Of a stretch of 64,000 nucleotides of DNA, positions 6,095-63,870 are shown piece after piece. How positions within the stretch are numbered: position 1 is the stretch's first letter; each line of letters opens with the position of its first letter. The notes under the pieces are model-generated. The model was not told the origin of the DNA and made no database searches. It worked only from the letters and a program-made list of their open reading frames with translations. The stretch is from Nitrospirota bacterium (GTDB lineage: Bacteria > Nitrospirota > Thermodesulfovibrionia > Thermodesulfovibrionales > SM23-35): assembly GCA_040756135.1 (NCBI GenBank), contig JBFLZS010000004.1, positions 7,469 through 71,468 on the forward strand, read 5' to 3'. Made by a program: the position numbers and the translations under genes.

Positions 6095-6295
6095 ATAATA
6101 AAAATTCATAAAGAACGGTTATTCGTAGACACTGCATTATGTGAAAAATGCAAATCAACTGCGATTGTGTATGACATTGATTTGCTTGATCAAGATTTAA
6201 TTTCTGAAGCTTCGAAAATTACAAGAAAATCAGAAGCTCAAATCAAAAATGACTTAAAAAATGTTTACGAAATATTAAATAGAATAAAAGCCTAA
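6095..6295 (+). pseudogene. cassette ORF remnant without canonical start
   Basis: A 66-codon open frame (..CEKCKSTAIVYDIDLLDQDLISEASKITRKSEAQIKNDLKNVYEILNRIKA*) with no in-frame ATG. Its stop TAA lies inside the first attC-like site. Confidence 0.3.
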
Positions 6296-12298: not shown

Positions 12299-12374
12299 TG
12301 GCGGTCCCAACGGGATTCGAACCCGTGTTTTAGCCTTGAGAGGGCCATGTCCTAGGCCTCTAGACGATGGGACC
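12299..12374 (-). tRNA. tRNA-Glu (anticodon CUC)
   Basis: The reverse complement folds as a cloverleaf: GGTCCCA acceptor, anticodon arm TGGCC-CTCTCAA-GGCTA, T arm ACGGG-TTCGAATC-CCGT, with an encoded CCA. It is close to the classic tRNA-Glu sequence. Confidence 0.9.
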
Positions 12375-12377
12375 GCT

Positions 12378-12451
12378 TGGCTGGGGAGAGAGGATTCGAA
12401 CCCCTGTAAGCAGATCCAGAGTCTGCCGTCCTGCCACTGGACGACTCCCCA
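12378..12451 (-). tRNA. tRNA-Gln (anticodon CUG)
   Basis: Reverse complement TGGGGAG..GCAGA-CTCTGGA-TCTGC..GGTTCGAATCC..CTCCCCA-G-CCA. The acceptor and anticodon stems pair fully (the T stem has one G-U pair). Confidence 0.9.
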
Positions 12452-13185: not shown

Positions 13186-14099
13186 TACCAGTCCCCTGAC
13201 GCTCCACCACCACCAAAACCACCACCTCCACCGCCTCCGAAGTCACTGCCTCCGCCAAAACCTCCACCAAAATCACTGCCTCCTGATCCGCCTCCACCTG
13301 TACCATAATATCCGCTACCTGACCAGAAACCTCCGCCTCTGTAAACCCCCGCTGAAGAGAAAAGTATTGGAAGTAACAGACCTGAAATTAAACCTAATAA
13401 GGCAAAAAAAATGAGCCAGGAAAACCCAATTGAAGGAACTGTTAGATAAACGAATACAGGTAGCCCGATAGCTCCTGCTACAGCAGATAGAATACGCGAA
13501 ATGCTTCCGAGAACAAGCATAACAAAGGAGCCAAAAATGAGGAAAGTGATGAAGCGTGAAGAATTATTATGTTTCTGAGAAAGATTATTCCCATCAGCCT
13601 TGAACTCCCCTCTTGTTGCGTCGATTAGGGCATGGGCGCCGGAGATAAAACCTCCATCAAAGTCCCCTCTTTTAAACTGTGGCTTTATAACAAGGTCTAT
13701 AATCCGTCCTGCCATTAAATCTGTCAACCTTCCTTCAAGTCCCCTCCCTACCTCAATCCTTATCTTTCTTTCCTGTTTAGCAACAAGAAATATTACACCA
13801 TTATCTTTGACTTTCTGACCGATTTTCCATGCTTCAGCAACCTTAATGCTAAATTCTTCAAGCACCTCTCCCTCGAGAGATGGTATTGTCAAAATGACTA
13901 CCTGTGTCGAGTCTGTTTGTTCAAACGCCTTTAACTTATTTTCAAGTTCAGTCTCTGCTGAAGGCGATATCATATTGGCATAGTCATTGACATAGCCCTG
14001 AAGTTTCGGGACATCGAGGGCATGGGCGGAAGGAAATAAAAGGAAGATACAAGATGCAAGATACAAGATGCAAGATATAAATTTAAAATAGTTTTTCAA
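13185..14099 (-). CDS. TPM-domain protein (YgcG-like) with Gly-rich C-terminal tail
   Basis: Signal peptide, TPM core (VNDYANMISPS..STQVVILTIPSL..IRIEVGRGLEG), TM helices and a GGGSGGSDFGGGFGGG tail. Confidence 0.8.
   Translation of the reverse strand: MKNYFKFISCILYLASCIFLLFPSAHALDVPKLQGYVNDYANMISPSAETELENKLKAFEQTDSTQVVILTIPSLEGEVLEEFSIKVAEAWKIGQKVKDNGVIFLVAKQERKIRIEVGRGLEGRLTDLMAGRIIDLVIKPQFKRGDFDGGFISGAHALIDATRGEFKADGNNLSQKHNNSSRFITFLIFGSFVMLVLGSISRILSAVAGAIGLPVFVYLTVPSIGFSWLIFFALLGLISGLLLPILFSSAGVYRGGGFWSGSGYYGTGGGGSGGSDFGGGFGGGSDFGGGGGGGFGGGGASGDW
14044..14078. repeat. 7-bp tandem array (AAGATRC x5) inside the signal-peptide codons of the TPM gene
   Basis: aagatac aagatgc aagatac aagatgc aagatat. 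On the coding strand this spells ..ISCILYLASCIF... Confidence 0.85.
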
Positions 14100-19786: not shown

Positions 19787-19940
19787 CTTATTAACGGTCT
19801 CAAAATAGAATTCATATTATTCGGAAAATCTCCCCTCACCCCTCTTTGCCAAAGAGGGGTATGATTCCTCCCTTTGGCAAAGGGAGGTTAGGAGGGATTT
19901 TATAAATCAATGTGCTCACTATTATGAGACTGTTAATAAC
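19787..19940. mobile_element. MITE-like element family A, copy 3 (most complete)
   Basis: TIRs CTTATTAACGGTCTCAAAATAG .. CTATTATGAGACTGTTAATAAC. The core is CCCCTCTTTGCCAAAGAGGGG and CCTCCCTTTGGCAAAGGGAGG. Confidence 0.85.
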
Positions 19941-23909: not shown

Positions 23910-26783
23910 ATGGAAAAGTATCTTGATATAACAAAAAGCGTTATCATCTCATCCCCTGCCGGTTCGGGAAAGACAGAGAAGCTCGCAAGGCGATATATAA
24001 GTTTGCTGCTTGGCGGCTCTGAAATAGAAAAAATACTTGCAATAACCTTTACTGAGAAGGCGGCAGCAGAGATGAAGGAAAGAATTCTCAGGATACTTGA
24101 AAAGGAAAACCCTGATATGTTCCTGAAGGTCAGGGAAAAGATGCCTCTCATGCGCATATCCACAATACATTCGTTCTGTCTTAAATTACTAAAACGGTTT
24201 TCAATAGAACTCGGCCTTGACCCTTCCCTTGAAGTAATAGATGAATTCAATGCATCCATCCTGTGGTCTGAGTCTGTGTATGAAAGCCTTATGGAAGAGA
24301 AAAATAGCCCTGACCTATTCTTCAATATGATGAAAAACAGGGGCGTCAAGGGCTGGGATAATCTATCCAGAATCCTCGATGAACTACACGGAAGGAGGCC
24401 GCATCCAGAGCTTATATTAAAAGAAAGTCGCCCTGTTGAGGGAGAAGAAGAAAAGAAAATCCTTGACCTGTATTCAAGATGTCTAAAACGTTATACTGAT
24501 AAAAAACGTGAAAGACATCTAATTGATTTTGACGATCTTGAGCTACTCGCGTATGAGGCCCTTGTCAAAAACCCTGAATGGCAGAACATCCTTTATTCAT
24601 TTGATGAACATACAGACCATATACTCGTGGATGAGTTCCAGGATACAAGCTCCCTGCAATGGAAGATTATAGACAAACTCACAGAAGAATGGCGCTCGGG
24701 CCTCGGTGCAAAAAGGGATTCTGGAAAGATACCAACCATCTTTCTCGTCGGAGATGAAAAACAGTCCATCTATCTCTTCAGGGGTGCAAATGTAAGCGTC
24801 TTTCGGGATGCAAAGGAGAAATTTTCCGAATGGCTCAGTAATGAATATTACTTTGAAGAGATACGGGAAAACTACAGGAGTCTGCCTGAAATAGTAAACT
24901 TTACAAACAGTCTTTTCAAAAGATTAATGCCTCCAACCCTGTATGAAAAATGGCGTACTATGTACACACCATTTGAGACAACAAGGGTAGGCAATGGCCA
25001 TGTCGAGCTTATCCTGATGGAAGGTAGTGAAGGCATAAAAAAGAGGCGTGAACAGGAAGCCTCGGCCTTATCAAAAAGGATACAATCATTAATTAATCAA
25101 TACGAGGTATGGGATGGGGAGACAAAGAGAACCTGCACCTATGGTGATATCGCGATACTTTTAAGAAAGAGAACACACCTCGGCATATTTGAAGATGCAT
25201 TAAGAAGAGAGGGAGTACCCTTCATTGTATTAAAAGGTATTGGTTTTTACGATGAGCCAGAGGTTGCAGTACTGAGAGAACTGCTTTCTTTTATCATTGA
25301 TCCGATGGATGATTATAGCCTGTTCTGTCTCCTCAGGTCTCCTCTTTTTGGTATTGACTACAGGATATTATTCAGACTGATTGATAAAAAAGGTGACCTC
25401 ACTTTATTAGAGAAACTTCAATCTCAAATCCCCCCTTCCCCCCCTTTACTAAAGGGGGGAAGGGGGGGATTAATGGCCCGTCATTTATCTGAGGCATTTA
25501 ATCTTATCTCCGGCTGGATCAGGAGATCTGCACATACACCCCTTGCTATTCTCCTTGAGGATGCGCTTTCAGAGACAAAGGGGTGGCAGTATTACTGGGA
25601 AAAACAGAGATATGTAAACATAAAAAAATTCATAGGACTTATTGAACAATATGAGTCACAAGGTTTCTCCAGCCTTGACATAAGGGAAAAACTCATCAAG
25701 GCAAGATGGGGTGAGGAGGCGAAGGCAAACATTAATACAGAGGGTATGAATGCTGTAAAGATAATGACAATTCATGCTGCTAAAGGCCTCCAGTTTCCAG
25801 TAGTATTCCTTCCGTCACTTGATGAAGATAATCTTCCAAGAAGCAGCTCAATAGTGATAGAGGAAGATGGAGAAAGGCTCTCTTTATCATACGAAGAAGA
25901 CCCTAATAAGAGGAAAAAGATTGGACATTTCATCAGGCGAAGGGAAAAAGAACTCGAAGAGGAAAAAAGACTCTTTTATGTTGCAATCACAAGGGCAAGG
26001 GATTTCCTCTGTATGCTCGGTGCACCAAAGAAAGAAGAAAAACATAAAGGAAGGCTCGCATATGTTACTGATAACCTCGAACACCTCTCTTCTCTCAAGA
26101 TAATAACCGAATCGGATATTAATGTCTTTAAAAATCCCCCCATCCCCCCTTTACCAAAGGGGGGTAAGGGGGGATTTATTTCTTACGAATTTTCAGAACA
26201 ATTCTTGTTTGAACCAGCATACACAGAACCCATCTCATATGAACCTTCACTCAAATGGCAGGATGTCACAGAGGATTTAGACATAAGGGTAAAACACGGT
26301 GAAGACTGGGTCTTACTTGGAAAGGTTTTTCATAGTCTCTTTGAAGAGCTCGCAAAGGGGATCATAAGGTTTGACGAAATAGAGAGAAGAACATTGATAC
26401 TTTTAAGAAATGAGATACATATAAAAAAAGATATAGAAAGATTGATGGAGATTATAAGAAAAGATTTTGAAAAGCTTGATTCATCGGGGTATCTAAAAGA
26501 TGTAGTTCTCCCGCAGATAAACTCCTATGCAGAGCTTCCTTTTATCATGCAGAAAGGAAACACAGTCTTCAGGGGCAGGATAGACAGGATTGTTATAAAA
26601 GATAATATCGCCAATATTTATGATTATAAGACCTTTCCTGTAAAAGAAAGAGAATTATCAGAACTTATTGATGAATACAGGTTCCAGATGGACATTTACA
26701 CGGCTGCTGCAGAAAAATTACTTTCCCTCAAGACAAAAGGGTACATCTTGTTTACACATTTGCCTTTACTGGTAGAGGTTTAG
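23910..26783 (+). CDS. addA: AddA-type UvrD-family helicase with C-terminal PD-(D/E)XK nuclease
   Basis: 957 aa with Walker A SPAGSGKTEKL, DEFQDTS, helicase motifs (IMTIHAAKGLQFP, YVAITRAR) and C-terminal GRIDRIV..IYDYKT. Confidence 0.85.
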   Translation: MEKYLDITKSVIISSPAGSGKTEKLARRYISLLLGGSEIEKILAITFTEKAAAEMKERILRILEKENPDMFLKVREKMPLMRISTIHSFCLKLLKRFSIELGLDPSLEVIDEFNASILWSESVYESLMEEKNSPDLFFNMMKNRGVKGWDNLSRILDELHGRRPHPELILKESRPVEGEEEKKILDLYSRCLKRYTDKKRERHLIDFDDLELLAYEALVKNPEWQNILYSFDEHTDHILVDEFQDTSSLQWKIIDKLTEEWRSGLGAKRDSGKIPTIFLVGDEKQSIYLFRGANVSVFRDAKEKFSEWLSNEYYFEEIRENYRSLPEIVNFTNSLFKRLMPPTLYEKWRTMYTPFETTRVGNGHVELILMEGSEGIKKRREQEASALSKRIQSLINQYEVWDGETKRTCTYGDIAILLRKRTHLGIFEDALRREGVPFIVLKGIGFYDEPEVAVLRELLSFIIDPMDDYSLFCLLRSPLFGIDYRILFRLIDKKGDLTLLEKLQSQIPPSPPLLKGGRGGLMARHLSEAFNLISGWIRRSAHTPLAILLEDALSETKGWQYYWEKQRYVNIKKFIGLIEQYESQGFSSLDIREKLIKARWGEEAKANINTEGMNAVKIMTIHAAKGLQFPVVFLPSLDEDNLPRSSSIVIEEDGERLSLSYEEDPNKRKKIGHFIRRREKELEEEKRLFYVAITRARDFLCMLGAPKKEEKHKGRLAYVTDNLEHLSSLKIITESDINVFKNPPIPPLPKGGKGGFISYEFSEQFLFEPAYTEPISYEPSLKWQDVTEDLDIRVKHGEDWVLLGKVFHSLFEELAKGIIRFDEIERRTLILLRNEIHIKKDIERLMEIIRKDFEKLDSSGYLKDVVLPQINSYAELPFIMQKGNTVFRGRIDRIVIKDNIANIYDYKTFPVKERELSELIDEYRFQMDIYTAAAEKLLSLKTKGYILFTHLPLLVEV
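25427..25471. repeat. GC-rich palindromic element (family P) in frame in addA
   Basis: AATCCCCCCTTCCCCCCCTTTACTAAAGGGGGGAAGGGGGGGATT, translated as IPPSPPLLKGGRGGL. Confidence 0.9.
26133..26176. repeat. GC-rich palindromic element (family P) in frame in addA
   Basis: AATCCCCCCATCCCCCCTTTACCAAAGGGGGGTAAGGGGGGATT, translated as NPPIPPLPKGGKGGF. Confidence 0.9.
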
Positions 26784-29084: not shown

Positions 29085-29171
29085 CCTTTCTTAGTTTATC
29101 CCCATCTCTGCTATAATTAGTGCATGAAACGTTCATGTCTTAAAAAGACGCAAAGGATAATGAAAATTAGT

Positions 29172-29217
29172 AATCCCCCTTATACCCCCCTTTAGAAAAG
29201 GGGGGCAAGGGGGGATT
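29172..29217. repeat. family P palindrome fused to a conserved leader (twin of 35640..35684)
   Basis: AATCCCCCTTATACCCCCCTTTAGAAAAGGGGGGCAAGGGGGGATT, followed by TGAGGTATTTTCAG and a start codon. Confidence 0.9.
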
Positions 29218-29231
29218 TGAGGTATTTTCAG

Positions 29232-29717
29232 GTGAAACATATTGACAGAATATGCGAAAAATACAATATAGCCCTATGTTATCTCTTTGGCTCTCAACAG
29301 GACCAAGGGAAGGCCATTCTGGAAGGTAAGCAGGTTGAAGTGGTAGACACAGAATCAGATATTGATTTTGCGGTTCTGTTTAAAACGCCTCCTGAAAATT
29401 CCCTTGAAACCTATGCCTTGTTGAGCCTTGACCTTCAAGAACTCGTAACACCTTTTAAAGCTGACCTCCTTTTTCTACATGAGGTTGACCATTTGATACA
29501 GCTTGAGGCAATTAAAGGGATAAACATATATTCCTTTGACAATGTATTTAGAGATGAATATGAAGAAAAGGTGATGATGTTCGCATCGGATGAATTAGAG
29601 ATATTTAAAATGAATGAGAAAGATCTGTTAGAGGCGATAGACAATGGTTATTTCGAATTTGAATACAAAGCTGATAGATATAGACAGCGGTCTACGATTC
29701 GTAGAGGAGAGGGTTAG
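29232..29717 (+). CDS. MNT-type nucleotidyltransferase-domain protein (no adjacent HEPN partner)
   Basis: LCYLFGSQ...ESDIDFAVLF (the GS..DxD NTase motif). GTG 29232 was chosen by analogy with glgA, and the C-terminal GEG* is supplied by a repeat. Confidence 0.65.
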   Translation: MKHIDRICEKYNIALCYLFGSQQDQGKAILEGKQVEVVDTESDIDFAVLFKTPPENSLETYALLSLDLQELVTPFKADLLFLHEVDHLIQLEAIKGINIYSFDNVFRDEYEEKVMMFASDELEIFKMNEKDLLEAIDNGYFEFEYKADRYRQRSTIRRGEG

Positions 29718-32231: not shown

Positions 32232-33545
32232 ATGAAGCGGGTTGTTGTAACAGGCATCGGTGCAGTTAGTTCCCTTGGAAATTCATTTTATGAGTCCTGG
32301 AGGGCTGCAAAAACAGGATTATCAGGCATACTGCCAATAACAAGATTTGATGTCTCTGATATGAGATGGAAGGTCGCAGGTGAGTTAAAGGGATTTGATG
32401 CAGGGAAATATCTTTCTCAAAAAGAGATGATCCGAGTTGACCCGTTTGTGCATTATGCTGTTGCTGCAGCAATGATGGCAGTAGAGGATGCAGGACTGAT
32501 AGATCAGAAGTCAGAAGTCAGAAGTCAGAAGTCAAATCCCCCTCCACCCCCCTTTACTAAAGGGGGGGTAGGGGGGATTACTAACTCCGAACTCTTAAAC
32601 TCTGCTGGGGTTATTATCGGTTCAAGCCGTGGAGGGATCACAACAATAGAAAAAGAGCTGCAAAAATTATACGCATCACGTATCACGCATCATGCATCAC
32701 GCATTTCTGCCTATCTCATGCCATCAACAACGATCAGCATGGCTTCGTCTTATGTTGCCCAAAAACTTGGTATAAAGGGCCACTGTCTCGGTATATCCAA
32801 TTCATGTGCATCAGGCACAAGTGCGATAGGTGAAGCATATAGGCTGATCAGGTCAGGCTATCAAGGTATCGTGCTATGTGGTGGAGCCGAAGCCCCTTTA
32901 TGCAGGATATGTATTGAAGGATATGGTTCATCAGGTGCTTTATCCAAGGTCAACGATCCCTCTGCGAGCAGGCCGTTTGACAGGACGAGGGATGGATTTG
33001 TCCTTTCAGAAGGCGCGTGTATTTTTGTCCTGGAAGATTATGAGAGTGCATTGCGAAGAGGTATAAGGACGTACGGAGAGATTGTAGGCTATGGGAATAC
33101 AACAGATGCATTTCATCAAACCATACCGGCCTCTGAAGGTGAGGCAAGGGCAATAAAGATGGCAATAGATGAGGCAGGATTGAAGCCTGAAGATATTGAT
33201 TTTATCAATGCACATGGTACATCGACACCCCTTGGTGATAAAACCGAGACAGAGGCGATAAAGCTGTCATTTGGCAAGAGAGCCTATTATATCCCTGTAA
33301 GTTCTACTAAATCCATGACTGGTCATATGCTTGCTGCATCCGGAGCCCTTGAGGCAGCTTTTACCTTAATGAGTATGAATGAAGGGGTTATTCCACCAAC
33401 AATCAATCTGAAAGAGAAAGACCCTGAATGTGATCTTAATTATGTAACCGAAACAAAAAGGGCTGATATTAAATCTGCTATTTCTAATTCATTCGGCTTT
33501 GGTGGGGTGAATGCGGTGCTGGTTTTTAAAAGGATTGGCCTCTGA
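32232..33545 (+). CDS. fabF: 3-oxoacyl-ACP synthase II (FabF) carrying two repeat-derived insertions
   Basis: KAS fold with active-site context NSCASGTSAIG, HGTSTPLGD and GHMLAASG. The extra segments are at 32505..32579 and 32671..32705. Confidence 0.9.
   Translation: MKRVVVTGIGAVSSLGNSFYESWRAAKTGLSGILPITRFDVSDMRWKVAGELKGFDAGKYLSQKEMIRVDPFVHYAVAAAMMAVEDAGLIDQKSEVRSQKSNPPPPPFTKGGVGGITNSELLNSAGVIIGSSRGGITTIEKELQKLYASRITHHASRISAYLMPSTTISMASSYVAQKLGIKGHCLGISNSCASGTSAIGEAYRLIRSGYQGIVLCGGAEAPLCRICIEGYGSSGALSKVNDPSASRPFDRTRDGFVLSEGACIFVLEDYESALRRGIRTYGEIVGYGNTTDAFHQTIPASEGEARAIKMAIDEAGLKPEDIDFINAHGTSTPLGDKTETEAIKLSFGKRAYYIPVSSTKSMTGHMLAASGALEAAFTLMSMNEGVIPPTINLKEKDPECDLNYVTETKRADIKSAISNSFGFGGVNAVLVFKRIGL
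32505..32579. repeat. composite insert: 7-bp array (CAGAAGT x4) plus family P palindrome, in frame in fabF
   Basis: cagaagt x4 then AATCCCCCTCCACCCCCCTTTACTAAAGGGGGGGTAGGGGGGATT, translated as KSEVRSQKSNPPPPPFTKGGVGGI. By my count the span is 75 bp. Confidence 0.9.
32671..32705. repeat. 7-bp tandem array (ACGCATC-like x5) in frame in fabF
   Basis: acgcatc acgtatc acgcatc atgcatc acgcatt, translated as ASRITHHASRIS. Confidence 0.85.
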
Positions 33546-34633: not shown

Positions 34634-35629
34634 ATGTCAGAACTTAGAAAGGACCCTATATCCGGCCGCTGGGTTATTATCTCTGTAGAAAGAGGTAAAA
34701 GGCCAACAGATTTTGTCTCTCCTTCTCAGAGAAAAAAAGGTGGTTTCTGTCCCTTCTGCCCCGGTAACGAATATACTACACCAGCAGAAATAATGGCTTT
34801 TAGACCTTCTGATACAAAGCCGAATTCACCGGGATGGACGTTAAGGGTCATGTCTAATAAGTTTCCTGCCCTCCAGATATATGGAGACCTGAATAAGACA
34901 GGAGAGGGCATTTTTGACAAGATGAACGGGATAGGTGCTCATGAGGTTATTGTGGAGACACCAGATCACATGCTAACCCTCTCGACTATGCCGTTAAAGT
35001 CAGTTGAAGATGCACTTTGGGCATATTACCTACGACTCTCTGACCTAAAGAAAGATCAGCGTTTTAAGTATGTGCTGATATTTAAGAATGAAGGAGATGC
35101 TGCGGGTGCATCCCTTGAACATTCCCATACACAGTTGATCGCACTGCCGATTATCCCTAAACTGGTGAAAGAAGAGACCGATGCCGCAAAACGTTATTAT
35201 GATTTAAAGGAAAGATGTATTTTCTGTGATGTTATTAATCAGGAACTCGAAAGCAGGAAAAGGGTAATATACGAAAACGCAAGGTATGTTGCACTCGCAC
35301 CATTTGCGCCGAGTGCGCCTTTTGAGACGTGGATATTGCCTAAGAGGCATGAGTCGAGGTTCAGCCCTCCGGATAAGAGTTTCTCGGGTCTTGCAGAAAT
35401 ACTCCAGGTTATCCTGAAACAGATGGACAGGATACTCGATGTGCCTCCTTATAATTTCGTGTTACACACGTCTGCTTTTACCGATGAAATAAATGATTAC
35501 TACCACTGGCATATAGAGCTTGTGCCCAAGCTCACAAAGATTGCTGGCTTTGAGTGGGGTTCGGGTTTCTATATTAATCCTACACCTCCTGAGGAGTCAG
35601 CAAGGTTTATGAGGGAGGCAAAGATATAA
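34634..35629 (+). CDS. galactose-1-phosphate uridylyltransferase-family (HIT branch) nucleotidyltransferase
   Basis: CPFCPGNE zinc motif and the active site SLEHSHTQLIA (HxHxQ). It is adjacent to glgA. Confidence 0.85.
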   Translation: MSELRKDPISGRWVIISVERGKRPTDFVSPSQRKKGGFCPFCPGNEYTTPAEIMAFRPSDTKPNSPGWTLRVMSNKFPALQIYGDLNKTGEGIFDKMNGIGAHEVIVETPDHMLTLSTMPLKSVEDALWAYYLRLSDLKKDQRFKYVLIFKNEGDAAGASLEHSHTQLIALPIIPKLVKEETDAAKRYYDLKERCIFCDVINQELESRKRVIYENARYVALAPFAPSAPFETWILPKRHESRFSPPDKSFSGLAEILQVILKQMDRILDVPPYNFVLHTSAFTDEINDYYHWHIELVPKLTKIAGFEWGSGFYINPTPPEESARFMREAKI

Positions 35630-35639
35630 TGAAATTTGT

Positions 35640-35684
35640 AATCCCCCTATACCCCCCTTTAGAAAAGGGGGGCGAGGGGGGATT
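35640..35684. repeat. family P palindrome fused to a conserved leader (twin of 29172..29217)
   Basis: AATCCCCCTATACCCCCCTTTAGAAAAGGGGGGCGAGGGGGGATT, followed by TGAGGTATTTTCAG-ATG of glgA. Confidence 0.9.
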
Positions 35685-35698
35685 TGAGGTATTTTCAG

Positions 35699-37156
35699 AT
35701 GAAGATACTCATTGCAACTCCTGAAGCCGTACCTTATGTTAAGACCGGCGGCCTTGCAGATGTTGCGGGGTCCTTATTTAAGGAATACAGAAGGATGAAG
35801 AAAGAGGCATACATTATCCTGCCTTTTTATAAAAAGATAAAGGATGGCCAGTCTTCGATAGAGGATACAGGTGTCAGGATAAATGTTCCGGTAGGAGACA
35901 CGGTCATAGAGGGAAGGATTTTCAGCAATCAATATTCAACCTATTTTATAGGGTGTGATAAATTTTTTGACAGACAAGAACTTTATGGTACACCGGCGGG
36001 AGATTATAGTGATAATATATCGAGATTTGTATTTTTCTCAAGGGGGATAATCGAGGCATGTAAGGCTTTGAACTTTAAACCAGATGTAATCCACTGTAAT
36101 GACTGGCAGACAGGACTTGTGCCGCTTTATCTGAAGACAATATATAGAGGTGATAAATTTTTTAAAAATGTGGCTACTATACTTACAATACATAATCTTG
36201 GATACCAGGGTCTTTTCCCATCATCGGACTTACCCATCACAAATCTTGGGTGGGAGCTTTTCAACCCCGAGGGCATTGAATTCTACGGAAAGATAAATTT
36301 TCTTAAAGCAGGCATTATATCCGCAGATATCCTGAATACAGTTAGTAACACTTATGCAAAAGAAATCCTCAATAAAGAGTTTGGTTTTGGCCTTGACGGT
36401 GTGCTGCGAATGAGAGAGTCGGTACTTTACGGTGTTATAAACGGTATAGATTATGAAGAGTGGGACCCTTCGAGAGATCTGTTTATACCTGCTAATTATA
36501 GCTATAATGACATCTCGGGGAGGGCATTCTGTAAAAAGGAGCTTATGAGATTATTGTTTGGACCGTCAGACATTCTTGATGCCGAACGCATCCCGCTCAT
36601 AGGCATTGTCGGAAGGCTTTCTGCACAGAAGGGATTGGACCTTGTTCTACAGTCCATCGATGAACTCCTGTCCTTTGGTGTAAAGCTTGTTATCCTGGGT
36701 AAAGGTGATGAAGTGTACCACAACAGTTTTTCAGAGGTCGCAAAAAAATATAAAGGCAAGGTATCTGTTATCATTGGATTCGAAGAGCCACTTGCCCACA
36801 AAATTTACGCAGGTTCAGACTTTTTTCTGATGCCATCGAGGTACGAGCCATGCGGACTTGGCCAGCTTATAGCCCTGCGATATGGATGCATTCCTATAGC
36901 AAGAAGGACAGGTGGACCTTCTGATACTATACATGATTATGAGCCCCTGAAATCGAAGGGTACGGGTTTCCTTTTTTCTGATTACACACCCTCTGCAATG
37001 CAGGATGCCGTAAAAAGGGCCCTTTGCGTTTATACAGATGAGGATAAAAAGCACAAGATGATAATAGATGGTATGAATATGGATTTCTCATGGAAGAAAT
37101 CAGCAGAAAGATACATTGAACTCTATAATGCTGCTATAGAAAAAAGAAAGGCTTAA
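35699..37156 (+). CDS. glgA: glycogen synthase GlgA
   Basis: MKILIATPEAVPYVKTGGLADV N-terminus and a GT5 fold (PSRYEPCGL). ATG 35699 is preferred over the TTG at 35684. Confidence 0.92.
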   Translation: MKILIATPEAVPYVKTGGLADVAGSLFKEYRRMKKEAYIILPFYKKIKDGQSSIEDTGVRINVPVGDTVIEGRIFSNQYSTYFIGCDKFFDRQELYGTPAGDYSDNISRFVFFSRGIIEACKALNFKPDVIHCNDWQTGLVPLYLKTIYRGDKFFKNVATILTIHNLGYQGLFPSSDLPITNLGWELFNPEGIEFYGKINFLKAGIISADILNTVSNTYAKEILNKEFGFGLDGVLRMRESVLYGVINGIDYEEWDPSRDLFIPANYSYNDISGRAFCKKELMRLLFGPSDILDAERIPLIGIVGRLSAQKGLDLVLQSIDELLSFGVKLVILGKGDEVYHNSFSEVAKKYKGKVSVIIGFEEPLAHKIYAGSDFFLMPSRYEPCGLGQLIALRYGCIPIARRTGGPSDTIHDYEPLKSKGTGFLFSDYTPSAMQDAVKRALCVYTDEDKKHKMIIDGMNMDFSWKKSAERYIELYNAAIEKRKA

Positions 37157-37169
37157 TAAGGTATTTCTG

Positions 37170-39614
37170 ATGGATACAGCACACAAACAAAAACTTGCTG
37201 AAATAATTTTTGAAAACATCCAGGACGGTATTATAATGCTTGATAGAAGCTACAGGATACTCGCTGTTAATAAATCTGCAGAGAAATGGATAGAAAACCC
37301 CTCCTCTGACCTTATAGGTAAAGACTGCGCTGAATTATTTCATGATCTTACAGGGATATGTCCACATTGTGCAGCCAAGGTCACGTTCGAAACAGGAGAG
37401 GTCAATATTGTGACGCAGAAAGGGAATCTTAAAAATACTGCATATTACGCTGAACTTTCAGCATATCCTGTAAAGAATGAGACAGGGGAGGTTATTGAAT
37501 GTGTTGTATTTATTCAGGATGCAACTGAAAGGATGCTCTGTCATGATGAGATTCTTGGTCTTTATAACGAGGTTACCCAGACAAAGGAGTATATCGAGGG
37601 AATTATAGAAAACTCGGCAGATGCAATAGTCACCTCTGATCTCGATGGGTTTATTACCTCATGGAATGAAGGGGCAGAGAGAATATATGGATTCACAAAG
37701 GAAGAGGCATTGGGGAAATTTTTACCTTTTCTTCCTGAATTTCTCATTGACCCTGAATGGGAAAACACTCAAAGGATAAAGAATGGAGAGGTACTGAAGG
37801 ATATGGAGACCTTCAGGAAGAGGAAGGATGGTACGATCATAACAGTCAGTCTTACGCTTTCTCCGATTAAAGATGTGGCAGGTCGGGTTATTGGTATCAG
37901 CGGTATATCCAGGGATATATCAGAGAAGAAACGTATTGAGAGAGAGCTGATCATGAGGAACCAGGAACTTTCGAGACTCTTATTTATCAGTTCAGCTATG
38001 AGGGGGACACTTGAACTTGACAGGTTGTTAAGAATGGTTCTTGCTGCAGTTACCATGGGCGATGGGCTCGGCTTTAATCGGGCAATCCTTTTCCTGGTTG
38101 ATGAAAAAAGGAATATATTGAAGGGGGCTGTGGGGGTAGGGCCTGCGAGTTCTGAGGAGGCGTGGCGTATATGGGAGAGACTTTCCATAGAGAAGAAGAC
38201 GCTGGCTGACATAATGCATGATATAGAAATTGGGCCGTTGAGAAAGGATTCTTTTTTTGACAGACTCAGCCGCGGTATGGAGATACCTTTGTCAGAGGAA
38301 ACAATTCTTACAAAGACCGTGAAAGAGAAGAAACCTTTTAATATTCATGATGTAAAAGAAGAACCACTCTCAGATACACTCCTAATACAGCAGTTGGGCA
38401 CACATGCTTATTCAGTTTCGCCTCTGATATCGAGGGATAAGGTAATAGGAGTCCTCTGGGTTGACAACCATTTCAACAGGAGGCCTATAGCTGAGGGAGA
38501 TATGAGGTTTCTCAGCGGTTTTTCAAACCATATTGCAACAGCCATAGAGAGCGCAAGGCTCTTTGAGCAGGTAGCCCTTGCAGAGCAGGAACTTGAGAAT
38601 ATATTTGAGTCAATATCTGATATGGTCTACTTCATTACGAAGGATTATGTGTTAAAGAACATCAATAAGGCTGTCAGCAAGAGGCTGGGTAAACCTGTAG
38701 AGGAAATCACAGGGAAGAAATGCTATGAGGTAATTCATGGTATGAACGGACCGCGGGCAGAGTGCCCGCATCATAAAACTATTGAGACAGGGAAGGCATT
38801 TGTAGAGGAGGTTGAAGACCATCATCTTGGCGGTACGTTCATATTTTCAAGCTCTCCGATATTTGATACGGCAGGGGAATTTATAGGTACGGTAAATGTA
38901 GTTAGTGATATAACAGAGCTGAAAAACCTGCGTGAGAGGCTTATAATGGCAGAGAGGATGGCGGCACTCGGAGAAGTTGCAGCAAAAGTAGCTCATGAGA
39001 TAAGGAATCCTCTTGTCTCTCTTGGGGGGTTTGCAAAAAGACTTGAGAAGAAGTTAGACGGCAACCTGAAAGAGTATGCAGATATAATTGTAAAGGAAGT
39101 CGAAAGACTTGAGGGCATACTTAATGAGATTCTCAGTTTTGTTAAGGAAACAAGGGTTGTAAAGGAAACAGTCGATTCTGCCAGACTTATTGAAGATGTT
39201 ATCTCTCTTACAAAATCCGATCTTGAAGAGCGGGATGTAGTTCTCGTCAGAGAAATTGGCGAGCGTATCGAGATGTATATAGATCCTAACAGGATGAAAG
39301 AAGCCCTGCTTAATATACTGAAAAATGCTGTTCAGGCTGTGGGCAGTAACGGTAAAATATTAATAAAGACATATATTAAAGATAATAATGCTGTGGTTGA
39401 GATAAAAGATACAGGCGCAGGAATAGCCGAGGAGGACCTGCCGTTTATATTTGACCCTTTCTTTACTACAAAAAGGACAGGTACCGGACTTGGCCTTGCT
39501 ATAACACACAGGATTATAGAAGAGCACTCGGGAAATATTGAGGTAGAGAGCAAGCCCGGCGCGGGAAGCATATTCAGGGTATTTATACCATTGAAAATGA
39601 GAAGTGAAAAATAA
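37170..39614 (+). CDS. multi-sensor histidine kinase (PAS-PAS-GAF-PAS-HisKA-HATPase)
   Basis: 814 aa with H-box AHEIRNPL, N-box NILKNAVQA, and G boxes DTGAGI and GTGLGLAI. Confidence 0.85.
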   Translation: MDTAHKQKLAEIIFENIQDGIIMLDRSYRILAVNKSAEKWIENPSSDLIGKDCAELFHDLTGICPHCAAKVTFETGEVNIVTQKGNLKNTAYYAELSAYPVKNETGEVIECVVFIQDATERMLCHDEILGLYNEVTQTKEYIEGIIENSADAIVTSDLDGFITSWNEGAERIYGFTKEEALGKFLPFLPEFLIDPEWENTQRIKNGEVLKDMETFRKRKDGTIITVSLTLSPIKDVAGRVIGISGISRDISEKKRIERELIMRNQELSRLLFISSAMRGTLELDRLLRMVLAAVTMGDGLGFNRAILFLVDEKRNILKGAVGVGPASSEEAWRIWERLSIEKKTLADIMHDIEIGPLRKDSFFDRLSRGMEIPLSEETILTKTVKEKKPFNIHDVKEEPLSDTLLIQQLGTHAYSVSPLISRDKVIGVLWVDNHFNRRPIAEGDMRFLSGFSNHIATAIESARLFEQVALAEQELENIFESISDMVYFITKDYVLKNINKAVSKRLGKPVEEITGKKCYEVIHGMNGPRAECPHHKTIETGKAFVEEVEDHHLGGTFIFSSSPIFDTAGEFIGTVNVVSDITELKNLRERLIMAERMAALGEVAAKVAHEIRNPLVSLGGFAKRLEKKLDGNLKEYADIIVKEVERLEGILNEILSFVKETRVVKETVDSARLIEDVISLTKSDLEERDVVLVREIGERIEMYIDPNRMKEALLNILKNAVQAVGSNGKILIKTYIKDNNAVVEIKDTGAGIAEEDLPFIFDPFFTTKRTGTGLGLAITHRIIEEHSGNIEVESKPGAGSIFRVFIPLKMRSEK

Positions 39615-39669
39615 GAAGTGAGAAGTGAAATCTTAACTTCCTATTTCCTATTTTCCACTTCCTACTTTT
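39597..39669. repeat. inverted 7-bp-periodic arrays forming an imperfect hairpin between kinase and regulator genes (possible attenuator or terminator)
   Basis: gagaagt gaaaaat aagaagt gagaagt gaaa / acttcct atttcct attttcc acttcct actttt. The left arm encodes the last residues and the stop of the kinase. Confidence 0.5.
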
Positions 39670-39685
39670 AAGAAGGAGGAGAGAT

Positions 39686-40035: not shown

Positions 40036-42036
40036 ATGTCGCGTGAAATCTATCTTGAAAGCACACCTTTACACGAGGCGATAGCGAAGTGGCTTAAAAA
40101 GCTTGATTCTGAAGGGGTTATGAGGCCACTCTCAGGGGAAACAATCAAGGTTGTAAATTCCCTTGGAAGAGTTACCGCTGAGGCAATCATCGCAAATATC
40201 TCTTCTCCGTTTTACCATTCGTCAGCGATGGATGGCTATGCCGTGAGATTCGCAGATACTTTTGGTGCCTCAGAGAGGACTCCTAAAAGGTTAAAGATAG
40301 GAGAACATACAGTTTATGTTGATACAGGTGATCCTATGCCTGACGGGTTTAACGCAGTAATAATGATAGAGGATGTAAATATAATAAAAAGTCAGAAGTC
40401 AGAAGTCAGAAGTCAGACAAATCCCCCCTTTCCCCCCTTTACTAAAGGGGGGTTAGGAGAAATTGATGAATACATCGAGATAATTTCGCCTGCAACACCC
40501 TGGCAGCATGTGAGGGTAATTGGTGAAGACATTGTGGCTACAGAGCTGATACTACCTGAGAATCATAAGATAAGACCTGTTGACATAGGTGCAATGCTAA
40601 CAGGCGGGCATATAGAGGTGATTGTCAGGAAAAGACCGCGTGTTGTTGTTATCCCGACAGGTACGGAACTTGTTGAGGCAGGAGGGGATTTAAAGAAAGG
40701 TGATATTATCGAATATAACTCAAGAATCTTCAGCGGTCTTGTCTCTGAATGGGGAGGTGAGTCTATCAGATTCAGGATTATACCCGATGTGATCGAAGAA
40801 CTGAAAAGGGCGATACTGGATGCCCTCGACATGGGGGACCTGGTTGTTGTTAATGCTGGTGCATCTGCTGGCTCGGAAGACTTCACTGCAAAGGCTATAA
40901 ATGAGCTCGGAGAAGTGATACTCCATGGCGTTAGCATAAAGCCGGGTAAGCCCGTCATCCTTGGATGGATAAAAGGTAAACCCATTCTTGGCATACCCGG
41001 CTATCCTGTATCTGCTTATATAACATTCAATCTATTTGCAAGGCCACTTATTTATAAATGGCAGGGTCTCGATATAGAAGGGCCTGAGATATTGAGGGCG
41101 AAGATTTCGAGGCAGGTCGCATCTACCTTAGGACATGAGGAATTCCTTAGAGTAAAGGTGGGGAAGGTCGGTGATAATTTTATCGCAACCCCTGTTAGCC
41201 GTGGAGCAGGTATACTTATGTCTCTTGTACGTGCTGATGGTTTTGTCCGAATACCTGCTATGTCCGAAGGTATTGGTGCAGGCACAGAGGTAGATGTGGA
41301 GCTAATGAGGTCTAAAGGCGATATTGAAAATACGATTGTCTGTATCGGAAGCCATGACAATGCCCTCGATCTGCTTGCTAATATACTAAAGAAGAGGCAT
41401 CCTAAGTTTTCTCTCTCATCAGCCCATGTGGGTTCAATGGGAGGTCTGATGTCATTAAAGAGAGGAGAGGCATATATGGCAGGAACACATCTGTTAGATG
41501 AGAAGACAGGGGAGTACAATGTATCATTTATAAAAAGACTTCTTCCTGATAAAAAGATCCTCCTCATAAATCTTGTCTATAGAGAGCAGGGTCTTGTTGT
41601 GCTAAAAGGTAATCCCAAAAACATAAATGGATTTGAAGACTTAACAAGAAGTGATGTCGTGTTTGTCAACAGACAGGCCGGTGCAGGAACAAGGCTTCTT
41701 ACAGATAAGTGTTTAAGAGAACTTGGGATAAAACCTGAAAATGTAAAAGGTTATGAAAGGGAGGAATATACACACATGGGCGTTGCATCTGCGGTGCTTA
41801 CAGGGGTTGCAGACACTGGCCTTGCAATACTTGCATCTGCGAGGGCATTAAATCTCGATTTTATCCCTGTTGCAAAGGAAAGATATGACCTTGCAATACC
41901 TCGTGAATTCTTTGAGACGGAGATGCTTCAGAATCTCATAAAGATTATAAGCGAGGACACAGAATTCAAGGATATGGTGATGGCGCTTGGGGGATACGAT
42001 ATATCAGATATGGGAAAGGTGATGTATGAAGGTTAA
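40036..42036 (+). CDS. moeA: MoeA molybdopterin molybdenumtransferase fused to a periplasmic-binding-protein-like domain
   Basis: 666 aa with MoeA domains (SAMDGYAV, GGVSxG-like GASAGSEDF, PGKP, PGYPVS) plus a C-terminal PBP-like module. Confidence 0.85.
   Translation: MSREIYLESTPLHEAIAKWLKKLDSEGVMRPLSGETIKVVNSLGRVTAEAIIANISSPFYHSSAMDGYAVRFADTFGASERTPKRLKIGEHTVYVDTGDPMPDGFNAVIMIEDVNIIKSQKSEVRSQTNPPFPPFTKGGLGEIDEYIEIISPATPWQHVRVIGEDIVATELILPENHKIRPVDIGAMLTGGHIEVIVRKRPRVVVIPTGTELVEAGGDLKKGDIIEYNSRIFSGLVSEWGGESIRFRIIPDVIEELKRAILDALDMGDLVVVNAGASAGSEDFTAKAINELGEVILHGVSIKPGKPVILGWIKGKPILGIPGYPVSAYITFNLFARPLIYKWQGLDIEGPEILRAKISRQVASTLGHEEFLRVKVGKVGDNFIATPVSRGAGILMSLVRADGFVRIPAMSEGIGAGTEVDVELMRSKGDIENTIVCIGSHDNALDLLANILKKRHPKFSLSSAHVGSMGGLMSLKRGEAYMAGTHLLDEKTGEYNVSFIKRLLPDKKILLINLVYREQGLVVLKGNPKNINGFEDLTRSDVVFVNRQAGAGTRLLTDKCLRELGIKPENVKGYEREEYTHMGVASAVLTGVADTGLAILASARALNLDFIPVAKERYDLAIPREFFETEMLQNLIKIISEDTEFKDMVMALGGYDISDMGKVMYEG
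40391..40464. repeat. composite insert: 7-bp array (GTCAGAA x4) plus family P palindrome, in frame in moeA
   Basis: gtcagaa x3 gtcagac then AATCCCCCCTTTCCCCCCTTTACTAAAGGGGGGTTAGGAGAAATT, translated as SQKSEVRSQTNPPFPPFTKGGLGEI. Confidence 0.9.
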
Positions 42037-43287
42037 TTATCCCTTTTTTTGTGGTTCTCCTTTTTCTTCAACCTCGCCTTCAATAAGTCTTTTTGCACCA
42101 ATAAATCTTTTGAAATAATATGGGGTTTCGAGACTGTCAATAGTAACCTTCTTGCCCCTTGATGATGCATGTATAAAAAGGTTATTGCCGAGATAAATCC
42201 CTACATGTGAGGGGAAGGATGCATATGTCCTGAAGAAGACGAGGTCACCTATAGAAAGCTCTTCCTTATCAACAGGATTTCCTTCAGAGAATTGCTCTCT
42301 TGCCGACCGTGGAAGATTTATCCCGATCAGGCTATAGACCTTTTGAACATATGCTGAGCAGTCAATCCCGAGAAGGCTGCTTTCGCCAAACCTGTAAGGA
42401 ATACCTAACAATTTTTTTGCGAAAAGGATAAGCCTTTCCTTCATACTGAGTTCTTTTAGGCCGGGGTCTTCAGATTCAGAGGCCTTCTTTATCTCATCTT
42501 CGATATGTGGCTGTGAAAGTATTGCCTCGTGATTTTTTATTTCAGCCACTTCAACCACGGGTTCTAAAAGGATTTTCTGACCCGGTTTTAATAAGTTTGT
42601 CTCGAGATTATTGATATCCATCAGCTCATCAGGATCGATATTAAACTTCTTTGCAATCTTCCAGATATTGTCGCCTTTTTCCACAGTATAATTCCTTGGC
42701 TCGGTTCGTTTAACAAGGAGCTTTCGTCCTATTCTTAGTTTTTTTGATCTAAGATTGTTGATCTCCTTGAGTTCATCTATTGATATTGAGTACTTTTTCG
42801 ATAAGAAAAATAAGGTATCGCCTCTTTTTACTACGTGGTATAAAGAATCCTCTTGACGTTTCACCGTTTCAATATTATCACCTGAAAATCCCCTATTTCC
42901 CTTTTTAAAATCCCCCTCTAATCCCCCTTTATTAAATCCCCCCTCACCCCCCTTTGCTAAAGGGGGGGTGGGGGGATTATCCATTTTCCAAAGTGTATGG
43001 GAGGATTCAGTGTGATTAACTTTATCTTTCTTTTGGGCAAGTTTATTCTTCTTTGGAGCTCCTTTTTTATTCGATGGAATGGTTATTTTTATGCCTGGTT
43101 TAAGATTAGCAGGCCTTAAATTATTAACTTTAATGATATCTTGTGTTCTAACCTTAAATTTTTTAGCTATTTTATATGGGTTGTCGCCTTTTTTTATTGT
43201 ATAAGTTGTATCAGCGTAAATATTGCCTGTGATAAAAGTTGCAAGCGTAAGGATAACAATAAAAAGATAAAGCCTTATCATACTCAC
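42037..43287 (-). CDS. LysM-repeat NlpC/P60 peptidoglycan hydrolase
   Basis: Signal peptide, three LysM repeats (YTIKKGDNPYKIAKKF, VVKRGDTLFFLSKKY, YTVEKGDNIWKIAKKF) and NlpC/P60 motifs (GIDCSAYV..H). Confidence 0.85.
   Translation of the reverse strand: MSMIRLYLFIVILTLATFITGNIYADTTYTIKKGDNPYKIAKKFKVRTQDIIKVNNLRPANLKPGIKITIPSNKKGAPKKNKLAQKKDKVNHTESSHTLWKMDNPPTPPLAKGGEGGFNKGGLEGDFKKGNRGFSGDNIETVKRQEDSLYHVVKRGDTLFFLSKKYSISIDELKEINNLRSKKLRIGRKLLVKRTEPRNYTVEKGDNIWKIAKKFNIDPDELMDINNLETNLLKPGQKILLEPVVEVAEIKNHEAILSQPHIEDEIKKASESEDPGLKELSMKERLILFAKKLLGIPYRFGESSLLGIDCSAYVQKVYSLIGINLPRSAREQFSEGNPVDKEELSIGDLVFFRTYASFPSHVGIYLGNNLFIHASSRGKKVTIDSLETPYYFKRFIGAKRLIEGEVEEKGEPQKKG
42886..42978. repeat. family P palindrome preceded by three extra AATCCCC half-sites, in frame in the LysM hydrolase gene
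   Basis: aaaATCCCCtatttccc..AATCCCCCtct AATCCCCCttt..AATCCCCCCTCACCCCCCTTTGCTAAAGGGGGGGTGGGGGGATT. On the coding strand this gives DNPPTPPLAKGGEGGFNKGGLEGDFKKGNRGFSG. Confidence 0.85.
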
Positions 43288-44002: not shown

Positions 44003-44110
44003 GTCATTGTCCGGCTTGACCGGACAATCCATGGTTCTACAAGCTCACCATGACAATTGTCACCCTGAGCCTGCCGAAGGGTGGATTCCCCGATCAAGTC
44101 GGGGAATGAC
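44003..44110. repeat. GTCATTGYCC hairpin doublet (family B) with a central GTCACCCTGAGCCTGCCGAAGGGTG module
   Basis: GTCATTGTCCGGcttgaCCGGACAATCCATGG ... GGATTCCCCGAtcaagTCGGGGAATGAC. Confidence 0.7.
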
Positions 44111-52403: not shown

Positions 52404-52685
52404 CTACGGATGACTGCCAACGTGTGCGCTGAACCTCCCTTCAAGCTCACCCAGCTTATTCGCCAGAAGCATATAATCTCTTTCAAAATGGCTTACTATA
52501 GCCCTTATATCAACCTCAATACGCTCAAGCCTTTTATCCATTTGCTCAAATCGCTTATCCATCTGCTCAAATCGCTTATCCATTTGCTCAAATCTTTTAT
52601 TTGTATCTTCCCTCAGTTTGCCTATTTCATCCCTTATAGATATGAGTATTTCTACTGTAATATCCCTGACCTTCCCTTTCTCCAT
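52404..52685 (-). CDS. small coiled-coil protein with 21-bp (7-aa) tandem repeat
   Basis: 93 aa, KRFEQMD KRFEQMD KRFEQMD KRLERIE. No family was assigned. Confidence 0.55.
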   Translation of the reverse strand: MEKGKVRDITVEILISIRDEIGKLREDTNKRFEQMDKRFEQMDKRFEQMDKRLERIEVDIRAIVSHFERDYMLLANKLGELEGRFSAHVGSHP

Positions 52686-63718: not shown

Positions 63719-63870
63719 TATATTAAAGGTCTCATAATTGAATTGACATTTATCAGAAAATCTCCCCTTGCCCCTCTTTGCCAAAGAGGGGTATTATTCC
63801 TCCCTTTGGCAAAGGGAGGTTAGGAGGGATTTTATAAATTATTGTATTCATTTTTTAGACTGTTAATAAG
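63719..63870. mobile_element. MITE-like element family A, copy 5
   Basis: TATTAAAGGTCTCATAATTG..TCTCCCCTTGCCCCTCTTTGCCAAAGAGGGG..CCTCCCTTTGGCAAAGGGAGGTTAGGAGGGATTTTATAAA..TTTTAGACTGTTAATAAG. Confidence 0.85.

Follow-up and report, generated by a model that had tools for sequence, protein, structure and literature searches.

A heptamer array joined to a G/C hairpin lies in frame in the fabF and moeA genes of a Nitrospirota bacterium

The stretch of DNA analysed here, 64,000 nucleotides of contig JBFLZS010000004.1 from the Nitrospirota bacterium assembly GCA_040756135.1 (the window), carries two genes, fabF and moeA, that each contain a small composite module in which an array of tandem heptamers (array A) is joined to a G/C-rich hairpin. 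The window is ordinary chromosomal DNA, 85% coding, with genes for ClpB, DnaJ, AddB/AddA, FabF, GlgA, MoeA, PyrG, KdsB, TrpRS, PBP1 and PFK. The moeA product is 100% identical to NCBI MEW6416846.1 from a Nitrospirota metagenome-assembled genome (MAG), and the nearest homologues of both FabF and MoeA come from MAGs labelled Nitrospirota, Nitrospirae or Thermodesulfovibrionales. The modules occupy positions 32505-32579 in fabF and 40391-40464 in moeA, where an earlier note, made from the sequence alone, had placed them. The host open reading frames (ORFs) and the parts of the modules, with arrays as delimited by Tandem Repeats Finder (TRF), are:

32232..33545, plus strand: host gene 1, fabF (beta-ketoacyl-ACP synthase II); intact 437-aa ORF; Pfam ketoacyl-synt and Ketoacyl-synt_C
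32504..32534, plus strand: array A in fabF, (CAGAAGT) x4.4, perfect copies; TRF period 7, 100% matches; reads QKSEVRSQKS
32535..32579, plus strand: 45-nt two-tier G/C hairpin in fabF, AAT C5 TCCA C6 TTT ACT AAA G7 TA G6 ATT; inverted repeat I7; one of a 7-copy family
32580..32606, plus strand: degenerate array B in fabF, related to (GAACTCC)n; ACTAACT CCGAACT CTTAAACT..
40036..42036, plus strand: host gene 2, moeA fused to a PBP-like domain; intact 666-aa ORF; Pfam MoeA_N, MoCF_biosynth, MoeA_C and PBP_like
40389..40417, plus strand: array A in moeA, (AAGTCAG) x4.1; TRF and pattern search; unit and orientation as in array A of fabF; reads KSQKSEVRSQ
40420..40464, plus strand: 45-nt hairpin in moeA; outer 3' arm decayed, GGAGAAATT in place of GGGGGGATT; inverted repeat I10, 77% complementary

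The fabF module reads (CAGAAGT)x4 + CA + AATCCCCCTCCACCCCCCTTTACTAAAGGGGGGGTAGGGGGGATT, and the moeA module reads GTCAGAA x3 + GTCAGAC + A + AATCCCCCCTTTCCCCCCTTTACTAAAGGGGGGTTAGGAGAAATT. The strings written out in the earlier note were exact, except that they omitted one or two bases of linker and, in the fourth unit of moeA, a single mismatch. That note had proposed a pairwise comparison at the nucleotide level, and global alignment of the two modules gives 64 identical columns out of 77 (83%) with a single 3-nt gap. The similarity extends beyond the C/G runs to the heptamer array, the CAAAT junction, the TTTACTAAA loop and the ATT end. With up to three mismatches allowed, the 21-mer AGTCAGAAGTCAGAAGTCAGA occurs in the window at these two loci only (0.00 expected), and the hairpin core CCCCTTTACTAAAGGGG at seven loci (14 matches on both strands; 0.12 expected). 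The string TAGAGGATG just upstream of both modules was considered as part of the element and rejected: it consists of conserved host codons (E-D-A and E-D-V) that are kept in orthologues with empty sites, and its sharing is a coincidence.

Low-complexity chance or an artefact of repeat assembly might be suspected in a MAG-derived sequence whose element is rich in C/G runs and tandem repeats. We consider this hardly credible. The chance expectations are 0.00-0.12, both ORFs are intact and in frame, the module is shorter than a sequencing read, and the same composites stand at orthologous sites in independent assemblies from other samples (L001, L247, L006 and L127). Of these, L006 belongs to GCA_017973895.1 and L127 to GCA_040960995.1.

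Both modules lie on the plus strand in equal phase, as had been claimed: the AAT of each hairpin is in codon phase 0, giving ..QKSEVRSQKSNPPPPPFTKGGVGG.. in FabF and ..SQKSEVRSQTNPPFPPFTKGGLGE.. in MoeA, with the hairpin of fabF alone translating as NPPPPPFTKGGVGGI. Their places in the proteins are also as described earlier, between EDAGL and GVIIGS in FabF and after AVIMIEDV in MoeA. The sequence (CAGAAGT)n is free of stops in all forward frames and its reverse complement has TGA in every frame, so that only one orientation can survive in genes. The hairpin is open in phase 0 (NPP.PPF.KGG) and phase 1 (IPP.PPLLKGG) and has loop stops in phase 2. The shared strand and phase are therefore weak evidence for a common origin, because stop codons leave one orientation and two of the three frames viable. 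Under the mechanism that we propose, copies arriving in genes would survive only where the orientation is free of stops and the frame is either of the two open ones, and this filter would explain the shared strand and phase.

Both modules are insertions relative to homologues of solved structure. FabF residues 90-118 (29 aa) replace 3 residues of Bacillus subtilis FabF (4ls6), and MoeA residues 118-145 (28 aa) replace 2 residues of Pyrococcus horikoshii MoeA (1uz5); in both cases the HMMER alignment splits at the module. In an AlphaFold model of FabF, which has low overall confidence (mean pLDDT, predicted local distance difference test, of 56), residues 93-118 are unstructured. FabF is otherwise well conserved, with 120 homologues at 70-87% identity and matches to FabF in the PDB at E 1e-114. 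In the syntenic, related MAG locus L129 the fabF site measures 24 nt, compared with 108 nt in the window, and the moeA site measures 15 nt in L128 and L129, compared with 93 nt in the window. Further empty sites occur in P0088, P0095, P0104, P0162, P0184 and P0237. The earlier note had suggested a search for empty sites in orthologues, and their existence (both genes in L129, moeA in L128) implies that the inserts are not ancestral to the phylum. The resemblance of the modules is thus that of copied DNA of common origin, and is neither convergent protein sequence nor an ancestral feature.

Comparison of 121 sequences per protein shows how variable the two sites are. The stretch from EDAGL to GVIIGS in FabF takes the form of 102 distinct peptides of 4-46 aa, and that from IEDVNI to IEII in MoeA of 95 distinct peptides of 5-45 aa. 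A site may be empty, or hold heptamer-derived peptides, hairpin-derived peptides or mixtures of these. The heptamer-derived peptides have a 7-aa periodicity (SQKSEVR, SQQSAVG, AQSIEHR, NAECGMR, SFNSSLVTRHSSL and others), and the hairpin-derived ones fall into at least three families: NPPLPPF[TSA]KGG.GG, SPPLNPPL.KGG..RGG, and PPTHPSPSRGEGKGG or NTPSLTLPPRGGGQGWGGG. On a crude tree made by the unweighted pair group method with arithmetic mean (UPGMA), the hairpin-peptide state changes at least 21 times at the FabF site and at least 13 times at the MoeA site. P0001, with a FabF 87% identical to that of the window, has the array and lacks the hairpin; P0124, with a MoeA 90% identical, has neither array A nor hairpin, only a short array of the unit AAATTCC. 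The sites in fabF and moeA are hot spots with rapid turnover of inserts.

FabF also contains a second heptamer array, (ACGCATC)x4.9 at 32671-32704, which encodes YASRITHHASRIS and varies among homologues. This array takes the place of a native loop of about its own length, adding only 4 residues relative to B. subtilis FabF. The exact FabF product (32232-33545) is missing from a collection of 15 billion proteins, in which the best match is 87% identical, although the MoeA encoded on this contig can be found there at 100% identity. It may be that the depositor's annotation placed the fabF start differently or, owing to the insert, called the gene a pseudogene.

The hairpins of the two modules belong to a dispersed family with the consensus AAT-C6-N2-5-C6-TTT-NNN-AAA-G6-N2-3-G6-ATT, which forms an outer and an inner stem. 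Seven copies lie in the 64 kb, and more in related MAG loci. The five copies outside fabF and moeA are:

25426..25474, plus strand: hairpin in an AddA-like helicase-nuclease ORF (23910-26783); no array adjoining; read in the other open frame, IPPSPPLLKGGRGG
26132..26181, plus strand: second hairpin in the same AddA-like ORF; no array adjoining
29172..29218, plus strand: intergenic hairpin just upstream of a nucleotidyltransferase gene; flanks common to the copy at 35640
35640..35685, plus strand: intergenic hairpin just upstream of glgA; 96% identical to the copy at 29172, flanks shared
42899..42980, minus strand: hairpin in the linker of a LysM/NlpC-P60 gene (42037-43287, minus strand); tandemly repeated left arm; reads NPPTPPLAKGGEGG

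Five of the seven copies are inside long ORFs (AddA twice, FabF, MoeA and LysM/NlpC-P60) in a window that is mostly coding, which implies a spread that is near-random relative to genes. The left arm of the LysM/NlpC-P60 copy (42899-42961) comprises about three tandem repeats of period 25-26, and nested or duplicated arms are likewise present in L002, L003 and L004. Decayed orthologues of this linker copy are found in L127 and L246 and none in L128, a pattern of vertical inheritance with decay. The two intergenic copies also have flanking sequence in common, about 17 nt on the left and about 22 nt on the right. The shared flanks (29120-29240 and 35588-35710) contain TTTGAGGTATTTTCAG, with a GAGG motif resembling a ribosome-binding site (RBS), and are directly followed by the start codons GTG (nucleotidyltransferase) and ATG (glgA); the repeat therefore gives two unrelated genes one RBS-like leader. 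The hairpin core also occurs in 40 stretches of viral-type contigs, with 48-65% G+C in those inspected, often with a single outer arm. One viral-type contig of 54% G+C (L165, IMGVR_UViG_3300035670_001258) has tandem inner hairpins CCCCCCTTTNNTAAAGGGGGG at 2253-2414 and 6096-6198, spaced 41-51 nt apart.

Several features of this family might suggest a useful function, either as a hairpin, in mRNA or DNA, that makes transcription or translation pause, stabilizes the message or marks a site of recombination, or as a flexible Pro/Gly loop that alters the properties of the protein. The fabF hairpin has a predicted RNA fold of -32.7 kcal/mol, which 1 of 200 shuffles equals for the bare hairpin and 0 of 200 in a 101-nt context; the stem architecture is kept throughout the family while the spacers vary; two intergenic copies stand directly upstream of start codons with their RBS-like flank in common; and composites persist in orthologues down to 78-92% protein identity. 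Against this, close relatives lack the module or carry other inserts, with about 100 different inserts per site as well as empty sites, and the host genes are functionally unrelated. Copies also decay: the moeA hairpin has a decayed outer arm (fold -21.1 kcal/mol, also read in phase 0), while orthologous copies in L127 and L006 keep intact arms, and the LysM linker copies are eroded in relatives. Rfam has no family that matches the hairpin. Compensatory covariation in the spacers was sought and rejected, as the spacers are fully complementary in only 3 of 18 copies and the changes are mostly not compensatory. We therefore regard a selected function as very unlikely. Most probably the element is selfish or neutral DNA that surface loops tolerate, and not a feature of the protein under selection.

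A larger repeat in the window may be related to these hairpins. A 150-bp element is present at 19790-19939 and 63722-63870; the copies are 92% identical, with sharp ends and 12-nt terminal inverted repeats (TTAACGGTCTCA ... TGAGACTGTTAA), and hold a double G/C hairpin built like the 45-nt palindromes. By appearance it is a true MITE (miniature inverted-repeat transposable element), and it may be a relative or the source of the small hairpins. A different hairpin, CCCCTTACTAAGGGG, with outer CCCTCC/GGAGG-like arms, lies just after the fabF stop codon in L127 (2445-2459) and L129 (4006-4020), and may be a terminator.

The heptamer arrays are likewise more numerous than the two modules. TRF finds 11 arrays of period 7 in the window, with 10 different units and 4.0-4.9 copies each. 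They start at 14044, 22261, 23445, 32504, 32671, 34589, 39598, 39636, 40389, 49248 and 49297 and are 29-34 nt long; none has 3 copies or 6 or more, though such arrays are detectable. Conserved ORFs hold eight of them (AddB x2, FabF x2, MoeA, KdsB x2 and a TPM-domain protein), and a hairpin adjoins only the two arrays with the CAGAAGT unit. Array A has 4.1-4.4 copies in the window and about 2, 4, 5 or 6 in orthologues, in line with the usual definition of heptanucleotide simple sequence repeats (SSRs; head-to-tail units, at least 3 copies in variable number). The arrays are ordinary heptanucleotide SSRs. The sequence (CAGAAGT)3 is found in more than 120 metagenome contigs from many phyla, with 33-69% G+C, and many of these arrays face an inverted array, with a short spacer between the two. 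CAGAAGT was considered as a uniquely favoured heptamer and rejected: in viral contigs it is 2-10 times as frequent as three composition-matched controls (43 stretches versus 22, 7 and 4), a preference that is not unique. In the window, (TGAGAAG)x4.4 followed by inverted (ACTTCCT)x4.6 lies between histidine-kinase and response-regulator genes (39590-39675) and forms a long hairpin (-23.4 kcal/mol, z -5.0), a layout that is common in the (CAGAAGT)n metagenome contigs. We also discarded the idea that arrays A and B are inverted partners that extend the small hairpin, as A and B folded without it do no better than shuffles (z +0.6 to +0.7).

The claim that the heptamer array is physically linked to the palindrome family holds beyond the two genes in the window, since the junction ..AGAAGTC/AAATCCCCCC recurs across fabF, moeA and other loci. 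Scanning 185,579 species, each represented by a single genome, for the pattern AGTCAGAAGTCAGA-N0-3-CAAATCCCCC found 4 loci in two Nitrospirota MAGs: L001, a fabF orthologue; L002, in a GT39-like membrane protein, where the junction is read in the same frame; and L003 and L004, which are intergenic. L001 and L004 belong to VGWY01, and L002 and L003 to JBFMAM01. An exhaustive phmmer search with a 35-aa peptide from the window gave 4 matches, of which 2 were useful, a second GT39-like membrane-protein orthologue (P0262) and a pilin-like ORF (P0263). A 45-aa synthetic composite peptide matched only tiny ORFs read from heptamer arrays (cyanobacteria and others), and HMMER's handling of low complexity makes such peptide searches a poor census of the composite. 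In all, the junction is present in fabF of the window, L001 and L247, in moeA of L006 (intact) and of the window and L127 (with a 3-nt deletion), and at five or six further sites among the Nitrospirota relatives, some genic and some intergenic. On present evidence the fusion of array and hairpin is confined to a narrow Nitrospirota clade, while its building blocks are widespread.

At all junction loci array A stops at the hairpin and never resumes 3' of it, a pattern not expected from random insertion of the hairpin into an array of 4-5 units. Beyond the hairpin, array B follows in fabF (window, L001 and L247) and in moeA (L246 and L130), and is clearer in the relatives than in the window; the B region common to fabF and moeA includes an identical 13-mer, TAACTCCGAACTC. 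The layout in the fuller copies is (CAGAAGT)n, a hairpin slot and (GAACTCC)n. Since units are so varied (10 among 11 arrays), an independent origin of A and B in equal order at two unrelated genes is improbable. The contents of the slot differ among relatives. In fabF of L128, CAGAAGT CAGAAGT CAGAACT TTGAACT CCGAACT grades from A into B with no hairpin; moeA of L130 has a third type of hairpin in the slot. The composite is best described as a slot between two arrays, in which the layout is copied between loci and the hairpin is exchangeable. The earlier note had proposed transposition or recombination of a unit of about 75 bp. A common origin of the shared DNA by copying is supported, but a 75-bp unit is too simple a picture, as its parts are separable and array B enlarges it.

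The composite is found both in intergenic DNA and in permissive loops of housekeeping genes that are unrelated to one another, and its parts turn over independently. As an account of its origin, we think it somewhat probable that the modules are copies of a dispersed small repeat belonging to one uncultivated Nitrospirota lineage, whose relatives are labelled Thermodesulfovibrionales. The alternative that we weigh most seriously is independent assembly, in which arrays would expand by slippage in length-tolerant loops and hairpins would later insert at the 3' boundary of (CAGAAGT)n, so that the modules would share a target preference and not a common parent.

A number of observations count against copying of the composite, and several of them speak for independent assembly. 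In the window, five of the seven hairpins have no array and nine of the 11 arrays have no hairpin, and this separate occurrence also fits independent, targeted insertion. The continuous A-to-B array without a hairpin in fabF of L128, and the third hairpin type in L130, are compatible with later insertion at the boundary. In moeA of L246 (protein 89% identical), the window's (AGTCAGA)x4 stands at the same site; the hairpin behind it is a different one, CACCCCCTCCCTAACCCTCCCCCCTCGAGGGGGAGGGCAAGGTTGGGGGGGAGG, and B comes next. The fabF and moeA copies have hairpin parts of 82% identity, and neither is the other's closest relative: the fabF hairpin is nearer to the copy at 42935 (91% identical). 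Neither of the two hairpins is therefore a recent copy of the other. The widespread (CAGAAGT)n arrays of the metagenome contigs are followed by the hairpin in none of 126 cases. Comparison of filled and empty sites, which are much diverged, revealed neither the target-site duplication that the earlier note had looked to nor defined termini or terminal repeats beyond the hairpin. No transposase is encoded among about 47 ORFs scanned in the window, nor is a REP-associated tyrosine transposase (RAYT; REP, repetitive extragenic palindromic sequence) or an IS200-like gene. The hairpin ends have no GTAG or CGTC tag and no other conserved flanking tag; the 4-nt left flanks are AGTC, AGAC, TCTC, TAAC, TGAC, TTAA, TAGT, TTGT and TATT. 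The data from the source genome consist of the 64-kb window, and L002-L004 were retrieved by searching for the junction itself and so attest to its recurrence, not its frequency. The insert as a Ser/Lys/Pro/Gly-rich stretch of 25-30 aa is a prediction from translation on paper.

Independent assembly meets difficulties of its own. It needs the A and B units to arise separately, in equal order, at two unrelated sites, in a window whose 11 arrays comprise 10 units. The empty sites hold no CAGAAGT seed, and the hairpin copies that lack arrays have no conserved target motif. We therefore judge independent assembly unlikely, although it is a rival to be taken seriously, and retain the copying of a composite as the preferred reading.

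Under composite copying, the unit copied between loci would comprise array A and the hairpin at the least, with array B probably included. After arrival, the arrays would change copy number and unit by replication slippage, and the hairpins would decay, vanish or give way to other hairpin families at the array boundary. There are two candidates for the copying step: transposition directed by the hairpin, in which an enzyme whose gene lies elsewhere would act on single-stranded DNA, and template switching or ectopic gene conversion, with priming in the heptamer arrays. The shared flanks of the copies at 29172 and 35640 imply that copies can carry neighbouring sequence, which favours recombinational copy-paste. 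By analogy with single-strand hairpin recombination at integron attC sites and at IS200/IS605 (insertion sequence) ends, the different hairpins at the same array boundary may be taken as indirect support for an exchange of this kind, by a hypothetical enzyme. A bolder version, which we hold to be quite unlikely, is that (CAGAAGT)n/slot/(GAACTCC)n is a cassette site, with the arrays as landing pads and hairpins of several families exchanged by attC-like or IS200-like recombination of single-stranded DNA inside essential genes.

The element can be compared with several known classes of repeat. The Rickettsia palindromic elements (RPEs) are described as protein-coding palindromes by Ogata et al. 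(2000, 2002), as summarized in PMC10969869. They measure about 100-150 bp, and according to PMC3733652 they have a CGTC tag at one end. As in RPEs, a dispersed palindrome lies in frame in unrelated, intact housekeeping genes, is missing from orthologues, is translated into a peptide on paper and has no transposase nearby: here the multicopy palindrome is in frame in FabF, MoeA, AddA (twice) and LysM/NlpC-P60, and absent from orthologues. Unlike RPEs, the hairpin is 45 nt long (75-100 nt with arrays), lacks the CGTC tag and any sequence similarity, is coupled to heptanucleotide arrays and is exchanged at a given site. The host also differs, being a free-living Nitrospirota lineage where that of RPEs is obligate intracellular. 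In yeast mitochondria, mobile GC clusters are G/C-rich palindromes of 30-50 nt in an A+T-richer genome, polymorphic for presence and absence and occasionally in frame in var1; unlike the element described here, they are organellar, of unrelated sequence and unlinked to heptamer arrays.

REP sequences and bacterial interspersed mosaic elements (BIMEs) are short, G/C-rich, imperfect palindromes in GTAG/CGTC-tagged superfamilies, some of them inside genes, notably those of DNA repair (PMC3733652). The present hairpins resemble them in their many copies, sometimes clustered or with duplicated arms, and in the presence of two hairpins in AddA and two arrays in AddB; they differ in the lack of a conserved GTAG/CGTC, in being intragenic in five of seven cases and not mainly extragenic, in their two-tiered stem and in their association with 7-nt arrays. 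The element behaves like an RPE or an intragenic REP but, by size, tag and sequence, is a member of neither family. Bacterial MITEs are small, non-autonomous inverted-repeat elements that can create in-frame fusions (PMC10969869). The 45-nt hairpin is similarly small and non-autonomous, with an inverted-repeat structure and a patchy distribution among relatives, but it is shorter, and has neither separate terminal inverted repeats nor a detectable target-site duplication. Heptanucleotide SSRs are known from their over-representation (Mrazek and co-workers), from the cyanobacterial short tandemly repeated repetitive (STRR) sequences, and from GGGGATT in Nostoc and TAACTGA in Beggiatoaceae, and are described as mainly intergenic (PMC4692102, PMC4679880). 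The arrays studied here share with them the tandem 7-nt units, a copy number that varies among relatives, occasional inverted pairs and a stop content that limits orientation; in contrast, eight of 11 arrays are in conserved ORFs, and a hairpin is attached to one of the array types.

Other small features of the window are a cluster of three hairpins, GTCATTGTCCGGCTTGACCGGACAATCC, CACCCTGAGCCTGCCGAAGGGTGG and ATTCCCCGATCAAGTCGGGGAATGAC, in the intergenic region between scpB and proB (44003-44110), with no credible Rfam match; an intergenic 21-nt tandem repeat x2.9, TTATCCATTTGCTCAAATCGC, at 52534-52594; and two adjacent tRNA genes on the minus strand at 12302-12451.

In-frame, protein-coding palindromes have so far been seen as a peculiarity of Rickettsia, with scattered intragenic REPs elsewhere. 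Here the same behaviour appears at high density in core genes of a free-living, uncultivated Nitrospirota lineage: FabF, MoeA, AddA/AddB, KdsB and a cell-wall hydrolase. In the literature we found no description of these repeats in Nitrospirota, and none of the coupling of a hairpin to a heptanucleotide array or of a hairpin swapped behind a retained array. For annotation, genes that bear such inserts may be mis-called as pseudogenes. For protein evolution, the finding bears on the gain and loss of 20-45 residues in surface loops, and the system lends itself to questions about the role of heptamer repeats and the movement of small hairpin repeats. If the cassette-site reading were true, it would constitute a new route to protein indel diversity in bacteria, with continual rewriting of surface loops, and would give heptanucleotide repeats, hitherto without one, a role.

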